Counted from the first letter of the stretch, positions 9,148 through 32,175 are shown. The stretch is 41,341 bases of DNA from Planctomycetota bacterium (GCA_026991575.1 JALXBF010000155.1:1-41341); one strand, 5' to 3'. The notes: generated by a model not told the origin, from the letters alone. Numbers and translations: made by a program.

Positions 9148-9463
9148 TTTATCATATCTCCATGCGTGCCAGGCACCTCCGCGGCATGCCCGGCTGCTTG
9201 GTGGCGGACCGGCGCGGAGACGATTGGGCCATTCCACTGAGGTGGCGGCGACGGACTCCTGCCGTGCGTCCAGGCAACGCCTTGCTTGAAGAGGCGGTCC
9301 AATGCGTCGCTGCTTGCCCGCCAGCACCCGCCAATGCCGCCCCGTAGTCGACCGGGTAATGACGCGGGCTGACAACGCTGCTTGGCCCGGTCCGATCGGG
9401 CAGCCTTGCGAAAGCTGCCATCTGCCCGTAGCATGCGCGCGCAGCATGAATGAGGACTTCGGC

Positions 9464-9733
9464 ATGGAGCTGTCCGAACGCATCCCAATTCGGGTGCCCG
9501 AGGTTGGACTTGAGCCCGAATGCGAGGTTCAGGTCAGCATGTGGTTTGCGCGACCGGGCGAGCTTGTGCTCGAGGGCGACCGGCTGGTGGAACTGCTCGC
9601 CGAGGATGTCACCTTCGACGTTACGGCACCGGTAACCGGGCGTGTCGTCGAGATCCTGCGTGACGTGGACGAGCCGGTCGAGCCCGGCGAAACGATCGGC
9701 TGGCTCGAAGCCAGCGTTGAAGACGCATGGTGA
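9464..9733 (+). CDS. Stand-alone biotin/lipoyl-attachment domain protein lacking the acceptor lysine
   Basis: IRVPEVG...W...PGELVLEGDRLVELLAEDVTFDVTAPVTGRVVEI...VEPGETIG lipoyl-fold pattern; GAGGA SD. Confidence 0.85.
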   Translation: MELSERIPIRVPEVGLEPECEVQVSMWFARPGELVLEGDRLVELLAEDVTFDVTAPVTGRVVEILRDVDEPVEPGETIGWLEASVEDAW

Positions 9734-9750
9734 AGAGCCAACGGGCTCTT
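9733..9750 (+). terminator. Possible terminator hairpin after the lipoyl-domain gene
   Basis: AAGAGCC-AACG-GGCTCTT directly at the stop codon; weak U-tract. Confidence 0.35.
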
Positions 9751-10083
9751 GCGTAGAGGCAGTCACCCTCGGCCAGCCCTGCTCGCCCCGCGCCGCCGGC
9801 ACGTAGCAACGTTCCCGGCCATCGGCACCAAGCGCCACGCTGCCCGGCAGCAGAAGGTGTTACGGCGGCACGAGTGCTACCACGATCCGAGCACGCCCAC
9901 ACCACCAGCAGCGCCGGGCCCCGGGGCATGCGTGCAAAGCGTCGGCTTTGACCACGCTCTCCCGGCCTGGAGCGACCGAACGCAGATCGTCGGGGCAGCA
10001 CGCACTTGTCCCACTGGTGAGCGGCTGCAGGAATTGGTAAACTACGTGAGCGTAGCATCCTGCCGTGGTGGTGCCCGACGCTG

Positions 10084-10533
10084 GTGGCAGAGAACGCCGA
10101 GATCGCTCACAAGCCGAAGCTGTTTGTGCTCGTTCCCGTCGGCGGTAGCGGTCGACCGGTGCCTTTGCGCAGGCCGCTTTATGTGGTTGGCCGTTCGCGG
10201 CACGTGGACATCCGCATCCGGGACCGCGCCGTCTCCAAGGTTCACGCCATCCTGTTTAACTGCGCCGGCGCTCTACTGATCCGCGACCTTGGCAGCACGA
10301 ACGGTACACGGGTCAACGGCCAACGGATCCGATTGGGCGTGCTGCTACCCGGAGACAAGGTCAGCTTCGCCGCGCGCACCTTCGAGGTGAGGGTCCAGAC
10401 GCCCGATGACACAGACCGTGCCGGCTACCAGAAGACGGTGTGCGACATGGAAGCCCTTGATCCGGTCGAAGAGGAGCTGGCCGAGCCGAGTTCGCCGGTG
10501 ATTCGCGTAATGCGCAGCTCGCGTCGCCGTTAG
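10084..10533 (+). CDS. FHA domain protein
   Basis: VVGR...VSKVHA...IRDLGSTNGTRVNG...PGDKV FHA signature. Confidence 0.9.
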   Translation: MAENAEIAHKPKLFVLVPVGGSGRPVPLRRPLYVVGRSRHVDIRIRDRAVSKVHAILFNCAGALLIRDLGSTNGTRVNGQRIRLGVLLPGDKVSFAARTFEVRVQTPDDTDRAGYQKTVCDMEALDPVEEELAEPSSPVIRVMRSSRRR

Positions 10534-10604
10534 CACGGTCTGAAGCTCGCATTCGTCACGCCCGCCCGAGCCCAACTGTTGCGGACGTCTCTGAGGTCGC
10601 ACCC

Positions 10605-11504
10605 ATGGCAACGATAAACCGTCGCTCCTTCCTTGCGACCGCCCTTGCAGCAACCGCGGCCGCTGCTGCGGCAGCCCGACCCGCAGCAGCAATCGATCCG
10701 ATCCGGCGTAGGGGTCGGGCAAAGTTCAAATTGAGCCTGGCCGCCTACTCGTTCCGGTCCTATCTGACCGGCAAACGGCCCCGCTGGACCCTGGACGATT
10801 TCCTGGACTTCTGTGCCGATCAGCAGCTCGACGGCACTGAACCGACCTCCTACTACTTTCCCCGCCCTGTCACGGATGAGTATCTGAACCACTTAAAGGC
10901 CAAAGCCTTCCTGCTCGGGCTGGACATCTCCGGCACCGCGGTGCGCAACAATTTCTGCCTTCCGCCCGGGCCCGCCAGGCAGCGTGAACTGGCGCACGTA
11001 AAGCGTTGGGTAGACTATGCGGCGAAGCTAGGCGCTCCGGTCATACGCATCTTCTCCGGAGGCGTGCCCAAGGGCCGGACACTGGAGGAAGCGCGCAGAT
11101 GGTGCGTTGAAACCATCGAAGAGGCGTGCCAGTACGCCGGCTCGAAGGGGGTGTTCCTCGCGCTGGAGAACCACGGCGGCATTAGTACCACGGCCGAGGA
11201 TCTGTTGGCGGTTGTACGTCGAGTGCGGTCCCCCTGGTTTGGCGTGAACCTGGACACAGGCAATTTCCGCAGTCGCGATCCGTACCGCGACATTGAGCTC
11301 GTGGCGCCGTATGCGATCAACGTGCAGGTGAAGGTTGAGATCCGGCCGGCAGGCAGCGCCCGCCAACCGGCCGACCTGAAACGAATCGTGCGTCTCCTGG
11401 AACAGGCCGGTTACCGCGGGTACTTGGTGTTGGAGTACGAGGCTGCCGAGGACCCACTCACAGCGGTGCCGCGGTACCTGGAACAGCTCCGCTCGCTGAT
11501 CTGA
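10605..11504 (+). CDS. Tat-exported sugar phosphate isomerase/epimerase (xylose isomerase-like TIM barrel)
   Basis: NRRSFL Tat motif; LALENHGG, NLDTGNF, GYRGYLVLEYE. Confidence 0.9.
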   Translation: MATINRRSFLATALAATAAAAAAARPAAAIDPIRRRGRAKFKLSLAAYSFRSYLTGKRPRWTLDDFLDFCADQQLDGTEPTSYYFPRPVTDEYLNHLKAKAFLLGLDISGTAVRNNFCLPPGPARQRELAHVKRWVDYAAKLGAPVIRIFSGGVPKGRTLEEARRWCVETIEEACQYAGSKGVFLALENHGGISTTAEDLLAVVRRVRSPWFGVNLDTGNFRSRDPYRDIELVAPYAINVQVKVEIRPAGSARQPADLKRIVRLLEQAGYRGYLVLEYEAAEDPLTAVPRYLEQLRSLI

Positions 11505-11615
11505 TCCGGCACGCCTCCCGCGGGGATGACCAGATGGCTTGTTGGCAAGCAAGGGACATGCTCGGCCCGTGATCCGATCAGCCGAACCCACCTGGTTTGC
11601 GCACGCTCAAGACGC

Positions 11616-12578
11616 TCATGCATGCTCGCGGGCATCAGGGGATATGGGCTGGCGGTTCCGGGTCGATGCGGCGGTGGACCGGACCGCAGCAATTACCTCC
11701 TCGGCCTGGTAGCTGCTCCGTACGAAGGGCCCGCAAGCAACGGCGCGGAACCCGAACTTGCGCGCCAGCCGCTCCAGTTCTTCGAACTCCTTCGGCGTCA
11801 CATAACGCACGACCGGCATCCGCTCCGGCGCAGGTTGAAGGTACTGGCCGACGGTGAGAATGTCGCAGCCGACGGCACGCAGGTCTGCGAAGACCTCGAG
11901 CAACTCGTCCCACGTCTCGCCCAGCCCGACCATCAAGCCGCTCTTGGTGGCGACCTCTGGGGCAAGCTCCTTGCTGAGTTGCAGCAGCCTGAGGCTGCGG
12001 CGGTAGTCCGCGTTCCGCCGGACTCGGTCGTAGAGCCTTGGCACGGTTTCGACATTGTGGTTCAGGACCTCGGGTCGAGCGTCGAGGACGGTCCGCAGCG
12101 CGTGCCAGTCACCGCGGAAATCGGGTATCAGAACTTCGATGGTCGCGCCGGTCCGCCGGCGGACGCTGCGGATAACCGCGGCAAAGTGGCTGGCACCGCC
12201 GTCTGGCAGGTCGTCGCGGGTTACGGAGGTGATCACGACGTGCTTCAGGCCTAGTCGCGCGGCAGCCTCCGCAACCCGCTCCGGCTCATCCGGTTCCGGT
12301 GGTGCCGGCTTGCCGCGTTGGACGGAGCAGAAGGAGCATGGTCGGGTGCAGACGTTGCCCAGAATCATGAACGTGGCCGTCAGCCGCGCGTAGCACTCTG
12401 GCCGATTTGGGCACCGTGCGTTTTCGCAGACGGTCTCCAACCGCAGCTCACGCAGCACGCGGGTGGTTAGCGCGTTGAAGTTGCCGCGCGGCAACGGACG
12501 CTTCAGCCACTGCGGGAGCCGAGGCCGCCAGGCGGCCGAGGACGGCTTAGGATCGACGAGCGGTAACTGCTGCATCAC
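11616..12578 (-). CDS. lipA: Lipoyl synthase
   Basis: CENARCPNRPEC (CX4CX5C), CTRPCSFC (radical SAM), NHNVETV, KSGLMVGLGE, RSSY. Confidence 0.97.
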   Translation of the reverse strand: MMQQLPLVDPKPSSAAWRPRLPQWLKRPLPRGNFNALTTRVLRELRLETVCENARCPNRPECYARLTATFMILGNVCTRPCSFCSVQRGKPAPPEPDEPERVAEAAARLGLKHVVITSVTRDDLPDGGASHFAAVIRSVRRRTGATIEVLIPDFRGDWHALRTVLDARPEVLNHNVETVPRLYDRVRRNADYRRSLRLLQLSKELAPEVATKSGLMVGLGETWDELLEVFADLRAVGCDILTVGQYLQPAPERMPVVRYVTPKEFEELERLARKFGFRAVACGPFVRSSYQAEEVIAAVRSTAASTRNRQPISPDAREHA

Positions 12579-13287
12579 CGCGTAGCCGGACGTTCAGCAG
12601 GTGGTCGCCTGCCGTGACGAAGTAGTCTTCAATCATAAAGGCTTGGGTGAAATGCCGCACGGTCGCCTCTCGGACCTTGGCCATAGGCGTCGGTTTGGCC
12701 CGGAGCGCTTCGATCGTGGTGGCCCGGACTGGCCGCAGGGGTTGCAGCTGCAGCAGGTGGAAGCGGTCCGGACACAGGGAGACGTTGATCCAGAACCCGA
12801 ACGTCGCAACATGCCGGTGTGCAGCAAGGCCCCAGCCGGCCAGCAAGCGTCCACCGCAGAACACGTAGCCGCCCCGCTTGAATTCGACCGGATCGACAAC
12901 CAGTTCGCGTAGCACGGCACGCAGCACGGCCACGAGCCGGCGTCGATAGCTACCGAGGTCCATTCCTGCAAGCGGGTAGACCGGATACGCCACTAGCTGG
13001 CCCGGCAGATGCAGCCAGCAGCCGCCGCCGCGGTTCACCCAGTGCAGGGTCACGCCCGCACGGCGAAGCTGCTCGTCGTCCCAGGCGATCTGGCCACGAC
13101 TGCCGGTGCGGCCAATGGTCACCGAGGGAGGATGCTCGCAGAGCAATAGCGCCGCTAACCGGCCAGGCTGGCCCGATGCCTCGTAGGCCAGGCGGCGCTG
13201 CAGGTAGAGTGCATCGTCGACGGTGATCTGCCCGAGCAGATACACCTGCAGCGACGGCGCGTTGTACCGCCTGGCACGATCGTGCAT
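12547..13287 (-). CDS. lipB: LipB-like octanoyltransferase homologue, catalytic Lys and Cys apparently absent
   Basis: LLLCEHPPSVTIGR, NRGGG..LHLPGQLVAYP match LipB; overlaps the lipA start; KIASIG replaced by LLAGWG and PCG absent. Confidence 0.8.
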   Translation of the reverse strand: MHDRARRYNAPSLQVYLLGQITVDDALYLQRRLAYEASGQPGRLAALLLCEHPPSVTIGRTGSRGQIAWDDEQLRRAGVTLHWVNRGGGCWLHLPGQLVAYPVYPLAGMDLGSYRRRLVAVLRAVLRELVVDPVEFKRGGYVFCGGRLLAGWGLAAHRHVATFGFWINVSLCPDRFHLLQLQPLRPVRATTIEALRAKPTPMAKVREATVRHFTQAFMIEDYFVTAGDHLLNVRLRGDAAVTARRS

Positions 13288-18945: not shown

Positions 18946-19202
18946 GGGCGGAAGCGGCCACCGCCAGCCCGGCCCAGGCTCTTGCCCGTCTCGCCAAACC
19001 GCACGCTGCGCCGTCCGGGCCAAGGACGTGCGCCACAGTGGCCCGAGCTACCGCTCTGCGCTGCTTGATCCGTCGGAATGCGGCACGATGCGGGCACGTA
19101 TAATTGGGAACACTCAGGAACCGGGGGCAGGGACACCAGCCCCTGGCCCTTGCTGACGGTCGCGACAAAACCAGTCCTGGATGCCAGTGCGAGGTAGCGA
19201 CA

Positions 19203-21029
19203 GTGGCCCTTGATGATCTGGTCGTCGGAATCGGCGGTGCTGCAGGCGATGGTATTGCCTCGGCCGGGGATACGCTTGCCCTGGCGCTTGCTCGGCAAGG
19301 TCTGCGTATCTATGCGTACAACAGCTATCAGTCCGTAGTCCGTGGCGGCCGCATCTGGCTGCGCATGCGGATTGCGAACAGGCAGCCGCTAAGCCCGGGC
19401 AACGTGCTGAACGCCCTGGTCGCACTGAACCAAGAAGCTTTGGACCTGCACCTCCAGGAGATCCAGCCTGGAGGTGCCGCTTTGTTCAACACGCACCGTG
19501 TGCGGAGGGCTCCAGAGAAAGGCCCAGACGGCGTGCAGCTCTGCCCGATCCCGGTCCCCGATCTGGCCCCGGTCTACAAGGATCTGCCCGTGATCCAGAA
19601 CACCGTGCTCATCGGCGCCCTGTACGCCATAATGGGGCTGCCGTTCGATGGTGTGGAGTCAGTGCTGGAGAGCACGTTCGCTCGCAAGGGCCAGAAAGTC
19701 ATCGACATGAACGTCGGTGCAGCCAGGGCTGGGTATGACTACGCCGCTGAGCACTTCCAGAAGATGGAACTGGCTCTGAAGCCGCAACCGACGCAGAAGC
19801 GCTACGCGGTGATGACGGGCAACGAAGCATTCGGACTTGGCGCCGTTGCTGCCGGCGTGCGCATGTACGTTGCCTACCCGATGACCCCCGCCAGCGGCAT
19901 CCTGCATTGGATGGCCGCGCACGGCCCGGCCGTGGGGATCAGCGTCCGTCAGCCCGAGGATGAGATTGCGGTAATGAACATGGCGATCGGCGCCAATCAC
20001 GCCGGCATCCGCTGCATGTGCGGCACCTCTGGCGGCGGCTTCGCGCTGATGACCGAGGCAATGGGCATGGCCGGCATGATCGAGACGCCGGTCGTGTGCA
20101 TCGAAGTGCAGCGTGGCGGCCCGTCCACCGGCCTGCCTACCAAGACCGAACAAGGTGACCTGTTCCAGGTTTTCGGAGCTGGCCAGGGTGACTATCCGCG
20201 ACTGATCGTCGCGCCCACCAACGTCTACGACTGCTTCGAAACGGTGAAAGAGGTTTTCAACCTGGCCGAGAAGTACCAACTGCCTGCGGTGATCCTCTCG
20301 GACCTGTTACTGTCGGAGCATCATGAGACGGTCGAGCCAGACCGCTTCGACTTCGAGAACCCACCGATCGATCGTGGGGAGCTGATCACGGAAGCCAACG
20401 GCGGCGATGGCGAGGCGTACTTGAGATACAAGATCACCGAAACCGGCGTCTCGCCACGTGCTATCCCAGGTGTGCCGGGCCACCTGTATGTGGCACCAAC
20501 GGACGAACACGATGAAGACGGAGTGCTGATCAGCGATATCTACACCGATCCGGTTCGGCGCAAGCGCATGATGGAAAAGAGGATGAGGAAGATGGTGTAT
20601 CTCAAGAACGAGCTACCGCCGCCGCGGCTGGAAGGCCCAGCCGATGCTGAGGTGACACTGGTCGGGTGGGGCTCGACCTGGGGCGTGATCAGGGAGGCTG
20701 TCGAGGCGCTTGCTGCCGAGGGCATCAAAGTCAATCACCTGCAGATCAAGTACATCGTACCGTTCCACGGTGAAGAAGTGGCCCAGATTCTGTCGAAGGC
20801 CAAGAAAATCATCATGGTAGAGCAGAACTTCGGTGGCCAACTGGCCCGGCACCTGCGGTCGGAAACGGGCATCAAGGCGGACGGCCACATTCGCAAGTAC
20901 GATGGGGAGCCGTTCGAGCCAAAGCACATTGTGGCCGGGGTGAAGCGGATCCTGGCCGGCGAGGAAGAGCTGGTCACCTGCGTGTCCGATGAACCTGGCT
21001 GGCGCTACGATCATCCGTCGTTTGTGTAG
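19203..21029 (+). CDS. korA: 2-oxoacid:ferredoxin oxidoreductase alpha subunit (gamma-alpha fused type)
   Basis: GGAAGDG, YPMTPAS, EDEIA, TSGGGFALM, QRGGPSTGLPT, WGST; GAGGT before GTG 19203. Confidence 0.93.
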   Translation: MALDDLVVGIGGAAGDGIASAGDTLALALARQGLRIYAYNSYQSVVRGGRIWLRMRIANRQPLSPGNVLNALVALNQEALDLHLQEIQPGGAALFNTHRVRRAPEKGPDGVQLCPIPVPDLAPVYKDLPVIQNTVLIGALYAIMGLPFDGVESVLESTFARKGQKVIDMNVGAARAGYDYAAEHFQKMELALKPQPTQKRYAVMTGNEAFGLGAVAAGVRMYVAYPMTPASGILHWMAAHGPAVGISVRQPEDEIAVMNMAIGANHAGIRCMCGTSGGGFALMTEAMGMAGMIETPVVCIEVQRGGPSTGLPTKTEQGDLFQVFGAGQGDYPRLIVAPTNVYDCFETVKEVFNLAEKYQLPAVILSDLLLSEHHETVEPDRFDFENPPIDRGELITEANGGDGEAYLRYKITETGVSPRAIPGVPGHLYVAPTDEHDEDGVLISDIYTDPVRRKRMMEKRMRKMVYLKNELPPPRLEGPADAEVTLVGWGSTWGVIREAVEALAAEGIKVNHLQIKYIVPFHGEEVAQILSKAKKIIMVEQNFGGQLARHLRSETGIKADGHIRKYDGEPFEPKHIVAGVKRILAGEEELVTCVSDEPGWRYDHPSFV

Positions 21030-21104
21030 TCAGCGCAGCGGCGAACCAGCTTCGCAGCGTGCGAGGACGAGGCTCTGCCAGGCAACAGATTACCGGAGTC
21101 AATC

Positions 21105-21998
21105 ATGGCAACTGCGACTGTCGAGCTGAAGCCGAAGGACTACAAGTCGAATATACCGCCCGATTGGTGTCCGGGCTGTGGCGATTTCGGCGTGCTCAAC
21201 GCACTGCAGCGGGCCTGCTCGGAACTGAAGATTGCCCCTCATGAGATCGTCGTCGTCTCCGGAATCGGCTGTTCGTCAAACTTGCCCGGGTTCTTCAGGG
21301 CCTATGGGGTGCATGGCCTGCATGGACGGCCGATCCCGGTGGCCACAGGGATCAAGTTGGCGAACAAGGACCTGACGGTGATCGCGACCGGAGGGGACGG
21401 CGACGGCTACGGTATCGGCCTCTCGCACATGATCCATGCGATTCGTCGCAACGTGAACATCACCTACATCGTGATGAACAACCAGATCTACGGGCTAACG
21501 ACCGGCCAGGTGTCGCCGACCAGTCTGCTGAACATGAAGACGAAGAGCACTCCCAAGGGGAACATCGAGCTGCCGATCAACCCGCTGATGCTCGCCCTGG
21601 CCGCCGGGTGTGACTATGTGGCACGGGGCTTCAGCGGTGACATCAAGCACCTGACGGAACTCTATAAGGGAGCACTCCAGCATCGTGGCTTTGCGCTGGT
21701 GGACGTGTTCAGCCCGTGCGTTACGTTCAACCGGTACAACACGTACGACTGGTTCCGTCAACGGATCAAGAAGCTCGAGGACAAGGGACACGATCCGACC
21801 GATTTCGTAGCGGCCATGGAGGAAGCAAAGAAGGTAGGCGATGAGGAAGTGACCATCGGGCTGTTCTACAGGAATCCCAACCCGCGGCCACCCCTGGAGG
21901 ACCTGGACGAGGTCATCGCCAGCGGGCCGCCGCTGGTCAAGCGCCCCCTCGGCATCACGAACGCCGAGGCGCGTCCGCTGCTGGAAGAGCTCATGTAA
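21105..21998 (+). CDS. korB: 2-oxoacid:ferredoxin oxidoreductase beta subunit
   Basis: WCPGCGD, SGIGCSS, LHGR, GGDGD ThDP motif, NNQIYGLTTGQ, SPCVTFN. Confidence 0.95.
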   Translation: MATATVELKPKDYKSNIPPDWCPGCGDFGVLNALQRACSELKIAPHEIVVVSGIGCSSNLPGFFRAYGVHGLHGRPIPVATGIKLANKDLTVIATGGDGDGYGIGLSHMIHAIRRNVNITYIVMNNQIYGLTTGQVSPTSLLNMKTKSTPKGNIELPINPLMLALAAGCDYVARGFSGDIKHLTELYKGALQHRGFALVDVFSPCVTFNRYNTYDWFRQRIKKLEDKGHDPTDFVAAMEEAKKVGDEEVTIGLFYRNPNPRPPLEDLDEVIASGPPLVKRPLGITNAEARPLLEELM

Positions 21999-31698: not shown

Positions 31699-32175
31699 TT
31701 ACAGCTGGCCCTTGATCAGGCGCTGCGCCTTGGGCCAGGCTTCAGCCAGGTACTGAATGTACTGCTCCGCGGTCATTGTTTCGGACGCATCACCGGCCAA
31801 CTCAAACAGCCAGCCTTCGCCGTAGTTGGCCACATTGATCCACGCCGGATCGTCCAGCAACCGCTCGTTGAAACGAATGACCTTACCGGCCATCGGTGCG
31901 TACAGGGCCGATTCGGCCTTCGAGCTTTCTATCGCCCCGATCTCCTGGCGCGATTCCCAGACATCGCCCGGCTCCGAGTACCACTCCAGGAAGTAGACGT
32001 CGCGCAGCAAGCGGACGGCGTACGCCGTGAAGCCGAAGCGATGCACGCCTTTGCCGGCAGCGTCCGGCAGGCACCACATATGGTTCCAGCAGTACCGGCG
32101 GTCTCGTGGGATCTCCGCCGGGTACTCCCCCATGTGAAAGACAAGCACGTCCTCACGCTGCGGCTCAGGGCTCAT
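31699..32175 (-). CDS. gcvH: Glycine cleavage system H-like lipoyl carrier
   Basis: HMW, FGFTAYA, IESSKAES (lipoyl Lys), APMAG, IN..YGEGWLF. Confidence 0.9.
   Translation of the reverse strand: MSPEPQREDVLVFHMGEYPAEIPRDRRYCWNHMWCLPDAAGKGVHRFGFTAYAVRLLRDVYFLEWYSEPGDVWESRQEIGAIESSKAESALYAPMAGKVIRFNERLLDDPAWINVANYGEGWLFELAGDASETMTAEQYIQYLAEAWPKAQRLIKGQL

Follow-up and report, generated by a model that had tools for sequence, protein, structure and literature searches.

What does a lipoyl pathway do with an octanoyltransferase that has lost its catalytic residues and with a lipoyl domain that has lost its lysine? The assembly of the lipoyl cofactor is regarded as well mapped, with LipB or LipM, LipA, LipL, LplA and LipS1/S2 as its parts. 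The question is raised by a stretch of 41,341 nucleotides (nt) from a Planctomycetota bacterium, called here the window, in which a lipB-like gene overlaps the start of lipA by 32 nt, both on the minus strand, close to the gene for a small free-standing lipoyl-domain protein. A first-pass annotation had described an intact lipA, a LipB homologue missing both catalytic residues and a lipoyl domain free of lysine, and all three observations hold. In the following, the dyad-less LipB-like protein is marked by an asterisk as LipB*, and the lysine-less small lipoyl domain (LD) as LD*. It is proposed that selection maintains LipB* and LD* as non-catalytic partners of LipA, octanoate being attached by other transferases; we consider the chances of this reading to be about even.

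By fold, LipB* resembles a LipB. It matches Pfam LplA-B_cat (PF21948) with 80.2 bits, its AlphaFold2 model has a predicted local distance difference test score (pLDDT) of 90.4, and its top Foldseek matches are the LipBs 2QHS from T. thermophilus (E 1.2e-21, TM-score 0.77/0.89) and 1W66 from M. tuberculosis (E 6.4e-17). The catalytic residues are a different matter. The catalytic Lys of LipB is K135 in E. coli and K142 in M. tuberculosis, and the Cys is C169 and C176, respectively. That these two residues form the catalytic dyad of the enzyme is established, and the E. coli variant K135A/C169A has no catalytic activity but still binds C8-coenzyme A (C8-CoA; PMC9307952, in part). In a HMMER alignment of LipB* to 2QHS (E 1.5e-19), Leu148 stands in the column of the catalytic Lys and Gln182 in that of the 'PCG' Cys. 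LipB* also falls under every NCBIfam LipB cut-off (NF010925, 51.8 versus 155; TIGR00214, 37.2 versus 83.55; three further models likewise). In contrast, the RGG loop, which is the lipoate-binding loop of LipB (PMC9307952, in part), is retained, together with the following His93 and the PGQ motif.

This combination of loss and retention extends to a large family. In the 120 homologues nearest to LipB*, the Lys column is most commonly Arg (46), Gln (30), Leu (24) or Pro (11), and the Cys column Pro, Gly, Asp or Ser. In the same homologues R86-G87-G88, G96-Q97 and R206 are each invariant (120/120), H93 (116/120), P95 (118/120) and N168 (119/120) are nearly so, and the C-terminal His228-Pro229 is nearly invariant as well. 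When 1.84 billion representatives are searched with a profile, 1602 match at E <= 1e-30. In an alignment of 151 rows, made up of the best 150 of these 1602 cluster representatives and LipB* of the window, Lys stands at the dyad column in five rows and PCG in one, a protein of 541 amino acids (aa). At 50% identity, the family forms no fewer than about 145 clusters. Arg206 and the C-terminal 'HP' motif are specific to it, and the His-Pro extension is mostly absent from the 26 canonical planctomycetal LipBs studied.

LD* shows a corresponding picture. It scores 40.3 bits against Pfam Biotin_lipoyl (PF00364; cut-off 22.1), and its AlphaFold2 model (pLDDT 89.0) predicts a barrel-sandwich fold with a protruding beta-hairpin (40-54), formed by strands 40-46 and 49-54 and a turn at 47-48. 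Foldseek matches it to E2 lipoyl domains (1GHJ, TM-score 0.74/0.82, root-mean-square deviation 2.1; also 1QJO), and its neighbours in the ESM Atlas are generic 'biotin/lipoyl-containing protein' clusters only. Alignments to 1LAB and 2L5T place Asp48 in the column of the lipoyl-Lys, so that the Lys of the DKA hairpin is missing. Moreover, there is no Lys at all in the 89 residues, nor in a longer frame of 143 aa starting at 9302. All 16 aligned rows of the LD* family are without Lys at the hairpin column, and 13 columns are invariant. The hairpin tip is Glu47-Asp48 in the window and GG, PG, SG, DS or NP in relatives, and Arg40 stands in place of the acidic residue of 'EGDR'. The small LD proteins of other Planctomycetota, which carry '...TDKA(T/A)F(N/D)V...', match LD* in length and in their place in the operon, but retain the hairpin-tip Lys. 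By fold and ancestry, LipB* and LD* are relatives of LipB and of lipoyl domains; by their catalytic and acceptor residues they are non-members.

LipA, on the other hand, has lost nothing. It scores 378.4 bits against TIGR00510 (cut-off 310.25), the motifs CX4CX5C, CX3CX2C and RSSY are present, and C51/C56/C62, C77/C81/C84 and R287-S288-S289 are invariant across 35 aligned LipAs. Judged by these motifs it is a canonical lipoyl synthase, and the earlier idea of a LipA acting on another sulfur-insertion substrate finds no support. It is the single lipA match in the genome of the window (G000).

Is this a local accident? In total, 301 genomes of the phylum were scanned with profiles of LipB* and LD*, and 60 regions and a few more were fetched; part of this locus sample was picked for proximity of the genes, and an absence means that nothing was found with the queries used. 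In the class to which the window belongs (families f1-f4, anonymous labels), 15 of 15 LipB-like genes are without the Lys and PCG and 15 of 15 small LDs without the lipoyl-Lys. The same Lys column is devoid of Lys at 52 of 52 further LD* loci, from metagenome-assembled genomes (MAGs) of planctomycetes. Outside the class, 'GK...' with its Lys and 'PCG' are present in all 26 LipBs, and the Lys ('TDKA' or 'TEK') in 29 of 33 small LDs. The same losses are thus fixed across a clade, which is more than chance and not local decay, and the matched loss in enzyme and domain that had been read from one locus is a property of the class. In a maximum-likelihood tree, one branch (support 100/100, length 0.99) splits the 15 LipB* from the 26 canonical LipBs, which fits a single origin of LipB*. 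Because LipBs outside the class keep Lys and Cys and most small LDs keep Lys, the ancestral module was lipB-lipA-LD(Lys), its small domain being free-standing and open to lipoylation.

At all 17 loci of the class type (the window, L017, L018, L021-23, L039, L040, L044, L046, L048, L050, L087-89, L091 and L096), lipA lies directly downstream of lipB*, just as it does in LipB-type arrangements. In a set chosen for proximity on the same contig, the LD gene follows directly 3' of lipA at 18 of 18 LD-bearing loci, and it does so at six additional loci of another set. This adjacency persists where lipB is divergent (family f82) or was not found (f89). Contiguous lipB*-lipA-LD* operons exist in G002, G003, G273, G073, G176, G210, G226, L091 and L096, followed by holB in the first four. 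Family f89 has lost the lysine of the domain independently (Lys to Glu), its LD still lying directly after lipA, and no LipB-like gene was found there at E <= 1e-10. The f89 members (L067, L068, L080) have small genomes of 2-2.5 Mb, and L080 has a Lys one residue past the Glu.

On the basis of these data, the following course of events could be imagined. The products of an ancestral planctomycetal operon lipB-lipA-LD would have been an active octanoyltransferase and a small carrier domain open to lipoylation. In the stem lineage of the class, the Cys/Lys dyad would have disappeared from LipB and the lysine from the carrier, and both altered genes would then have been kept under purifying selection. 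That both are under selection is indicated by their intact frames, confident models and invariant residues. Because the acyl/lipoyl pocket (RGG loop, His) is kept, LipB* probably binds the acyl or lipoyl arm; it would hold octanoyl-pantetheine or an octanoyl- or lipoyl-lysyl arm without turnover, and the E. coli double mutant provides a precedent for a protein that binds but does not catalyse. LD* could be a blank mimic of a lipoyl domain that takes the docking places of real ones and serves there as placeholder, adaptor or brake. GcvH, and in relatives the E2s too, would receive octanoate from LipM/LipL-like proteins. A non-catalytic role, which the first-pass annotation had also suggested, remains the best reading because the matched loss is clade-wide, the genes form an operon in relatives and no canonical LipB is present in G000. 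The sequence states, their conservation, the synteny, the single origin, the joint loss and the presence of further transferases are shown by the data; ligand binding, docking on LipA and a regulatory or chaperone effect of LipB* and LD* are what we infer. The more specific suggestion, that a pseudo-enzyme and a pseudo-carrier bind LipA as a pair and gate or chaperone sulfur insertion, is offered tentatively and is somewhat doubtful. LD* would then occupy the docking site for lipoyl domains and LipB* would hold the octanoyl arm; the ancestral small LD would have been a dedicated lipoyl carrier or relay protein, and the pair would have arisen by matched inactivation. The nearest functional analogy of LD* is found in plants. 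BADC proteins are homologues of BCCP without the biotinyl-Lys and inhibit acetyl-CoA carboxylase (10.1101/634550, in part). They too are carrier-domain homologues minus the cofactor-bearing residue, and they act via binding, as LD* may do, although the likeness is one of function only and they belong to a different cofactor system and kingdom.

If LipB* is inactive, octanoate would be attached by other enzymes. A search of G000 finds no canonical LipB, and it finds two LplA-B_cat proteins besides LipB*, here called type M and type P. The earlier proposal to look for such enzymes is thereby answered in part: a canonical LipB is missing, and two further LplA/LipM-type proteins are there, which can account for octanoyl attachment in G000 as far as motifs tell. 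Type P is a catalytic-domain-only protein of the LplA family, in which a Cys precedes the conserved Lys by about 17 residues, and is often encoded beside gcvPB. The form with both Cys and Lys was detected in all 15 f3 genomes and, overall, in 130 of the 301 genomes; type M occurs in 64 of 301 and in 3 of 15 from f3. In five f3 genomes (three of them single-contig), each of which has 2-3 E2s, the LplA-B_cat proteins are limited to LipB* and type P. One specific transferase replacing LipB* was considered and rejected, given the patchy occurrence of type M. Type P as a one-for-one replacement was rejected too, since it co-occurs with canonical LipB, for example in 3 of 3 f9 genomes.

In the Bacillus-type relay, which consists of LipM, GcvH, LipL and LipA, GcvH is an obligatory intermediate. 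A summary of this relay is given in PMC10332631 (in part). Type P recalls its enzymes in being a catalytic-domain-only LplA-family protein with the Cys-Lys arrangement described above, and a small carrier encoded with the synthesis genes recalls the GcvH intermediate; the planctomycete carrier, however, is a lipoyl domain and not GcvH, and in the window's class it cannot be acylated. The targets in G000 are few. A canonical GcvH (134 bits, 'ESVKT') is encoded in the gcv cluster, no E2 with lipoyl domains was found in the search of G000, and the remaining Biotin_lipoyl matches are AccB and pyruvate carboxylase. The GcvH-like paralogue of the window has a lipoyl-Lys ('ESSKAES') and scores below the cut-offs (87.1 versus 117; 75.3 versus 115.85). 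It had been put forward as a possible true acceptor; with a canonical GcvH in the genome it need not be.

Several observations weigh against a partnership of LipB* and LD* with LipA. In G000 itself, LD* lies 1.9 kb from lipA, in convergent orientation and with two genes between. LD* is likewise unlinked from lipA in G121, G159, G193, G242, G140 and G046 and at 50 of the 52 further LD* loci, and in G001 it lies on another contig. Of the synteny that the first-pass annotation had looked to, the lipB*-lipA pair and the operon of several relatives thus stand, while the linkage of LD* fails in most of the class members read. Since LD* is unlinked in most class genomes read, its role may not concern LipA. 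Kin are not independent, and in terms of phylogeny the class contributes essentially a single event of matched loss, in a sample that holds only about three independent Lys-loss events. One of these, in G012, pairs a Lys-less LD with a canonical LipB; therefore, losses in enzyme and carrier are not strictly coupled. In G288 (f3, 100% complete), neither LipB* (E <= 1e-5) nor a small LD* (E <= 1e-6) was found, and LipA and type P are retained. LipA can therefore do without both. This genome is a natural knockout, and the joint loss of LipB* and LD* in it counts in favour of the partnership, although it is seen in a single genome. As for the transferases, type P of G000 keeps the Cys and has Arg at the Lys position, at which G001, G002 and the f3 relatives have Lys, and the roles of types P and M are assigned from motifs only. 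In LipB* itself, 128 of 151 representatives have Cys50, and in about 12 a Cys occupies the column preceding that of the canonical Cys; residual or altered catalysis is therefore conceivable in part of the family. Finally, a physical association of LipA, LipB* and LD* is a prediction from sequence and synteny. A complex prediction for LipA and LD* gave no answer (score 0.00 in both runs), which counts neither for nor against binding.

The varied surroundings of LD* are an argument for a different explanation, namely that LD*, and possibly LipB*, was recruited to a job unrelated to lipoate, for instance as a protein-protein adaptor in another pathway or for binding another acyl ligand, the link to lipA being inherited gene order. 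LD* stands beside an FHA gene in G000 and G001, is followed by holB as described above, is divergent from a redoxin-domain gene in G242, G140 and G046, and lies upstream of lnt in 37 loci; moreover, lipoyl-like barrel-sandwich domains serve as structural modules elsewhere (Pfam BSH families are among the Atlas neighbours). None of these contexts, however, recurs across families, as adjacency to lipA does in many families of the phylum. LipB* never leaves lipA, and the two proteins are jointly absent from G288. We therefore regard recruitment to an unrelated task as rather unlikely.

Alternatively, LipB* may have remained a transferase of octanoyl (or lipoyl) groups despite the loss of the canonical dyad, LD* being a separate matter. 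The acceptor lysine could attack the bound thioester directly, or another nucleophile such as Cys50 could be used. The preserved pocket (RGG, His93, PGQ, Asn168) and the invariable coupling to lipA would be in line with such an activity, Arg206 and His228-Pro229 could build a new site, and besides Cys50 there is Cys90, present in 71 of the 151 representatives. The catalytic Cys is known to occupy different sequence positions in LipB and LipM. A relocated nucleophile as a general rule, prompted by a Cys50 invariant and a Cys90 present in 115 of 120 among the nearest homologues, was nevertheless rejected: position 50 is Ala in G159, position 90 is Thr or Ala in G273, G121 and G073, and the counts for the 151 representatives lead to the same verdict. 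There is no Cys or Lys that all members of the clade share, and even the RGG loop is altered to RPGG in the very divergent copies of G210 and G226 (tree branch length 2.16). The inactivity of the E. coli double mutant speaks against this alternative as well, as do the LipM/LipL-like protein with Cys and Lys in every f3 genome, the presence of LipA without LipB* in G288 and the parallel loss of the acceptor Lys in the partner domain. A dyad-independent transferase is thus unlikely. Both genes could instead be remnants in decay, left over from a pathway that LipM/LplA-type enzymes have made superfluous. This would agree with the missing residues, the dispensability of both in G288 and the divergence of the G210 and G226 copies, but it is very improbable in view of open, full-length frames at all 17 LipB* loci and at the LD* loci read (15 class genomes, 52 loci), the many residues kept invariant throughout the family, the confidently predicted folds and the gain of new conserved motifs.

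The missing dyad has consequences for the annotation of the pathway. Genome surveys count LipB homologues as octanoyltransferases, and public sources label the LipB* family 'lipoyl(octanoyl) transferase'. Since at least about 145 clusters labelled in this way are without the dyad, pathway predictions for the window's class are probably wrong on the enzyme that attaches octanoate. Full-text searches of the literature brought up no description of a LipB family without the dyad, or of a Lys-less lipoyl domain encoded with lipA; the main text of the survey PMC10332631 has no occurrence of Planctomycetes, and its supplementary tables may list these genomes. The pairing of lipA and LD throughout the phylum points to an unstudied small lipoyl carrier protein, and the paired loss points to pseudoenzyme partners of a radical-SAM enzyme for sulfur insertion, the first candidates of this kind. 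A gating or chaperone pair, if true, would constitute an undescribed layer of control in lipoyl cofactor synthesis.

Table 1. Features of the window and of its genome (positions refer to the window unless a genome and contig are given)
Feature	Position	Strand	Basis or remark
LD* (free-standing lipoyl-fold protein, 89 aa)	9464-9733	+	Pfam PF00364
FHA-domain protein	10084-10533	+	profile match; directly after LD*
TAT-signal xylose-isomerase-like TIM-barrel protein	10605-11504	+	profile match
lipA, 320 aa	11616-12578	-	TIGR00510
LipB* (LipB-fold, dyad-less, 246 aa)	12547-13287	-	Pfam LplA-B_cat PF21948
Two-subunit 2-oxoacid:ferredoxin oxidoreductase genes	19104-21998	+	
GcvH-like paralogue	31699-32175	-	adjoins surE
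Canonical GcvH	G000:C191:14544-14894		gcv cluster
Type P	G000:C191:17875-18612 (L003:1459-2196)		directly after gcvPB
Type M	G000:C191:88723-89550		conserved Lys only
Acyltransferase-domain protein, 289 aa	G000:C6:76469-77335 (L013:1399-2265)		'DHRVTDG' motif

The genes for LD*, the FHA-domain protein and the TIM-barrel protein (the latter with a twin-arginine translocation, TAT, signal) converge on lipB*-lipA. The FHA-domain protein is also found directly 3' of LD* in G001 (L016:1857-2300). It has a weak likeness to OdhI, an inhibitor of 2-oxoglutarate dehydrogenase, with 30.6 bits against a cut-off of 200, which is far from membership. The 289-aa protein listed in Table 1 consists only of the catalytic domain of a 2-oxoacid dehydrogenase acyltransferase and is without a lipoyl or subunit-binding domain. 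The ferredoxin oxidoreductase genes, together with the missing E2s, suggest that the organism may oxidise 2-oxoacids without lipoate.

Elsewhere in the phylum, the canonical LipB is apparently fused to LipA. One frame of about 550 aa covers both in several planctomycete families (L062:1384-3030, L064:503-2179, L070:583-2268 and L038:664-2385; also P0282, 541 aa).

A second conserved neighbour of LD* was sought, and the candidates (holB, FHA, redoxin, lnt, M28 peptidase) were rejected as lineage-local contexts. The largest of these contexts belongs to one large MAG clade: lnt, encoding apolipoprotein N-acyltransferase, lies directly downstream of LD* on the same strand at 37 of the 52 further loci. 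These lnt-linked loci fall within L092-L141 (for example L108:2856-4937), with an M28 peptidase gene upstream in 24 of them. At L045, L047 and L049 (G242, G140 and G046), the protein encoded divergently from LD* has 450-500 aa and a C-terminal AhpC/TSA-redoxin domain, and a pyrroloquinoline quinone (PQQ)-like beta-propeller protein is encoded nearby.

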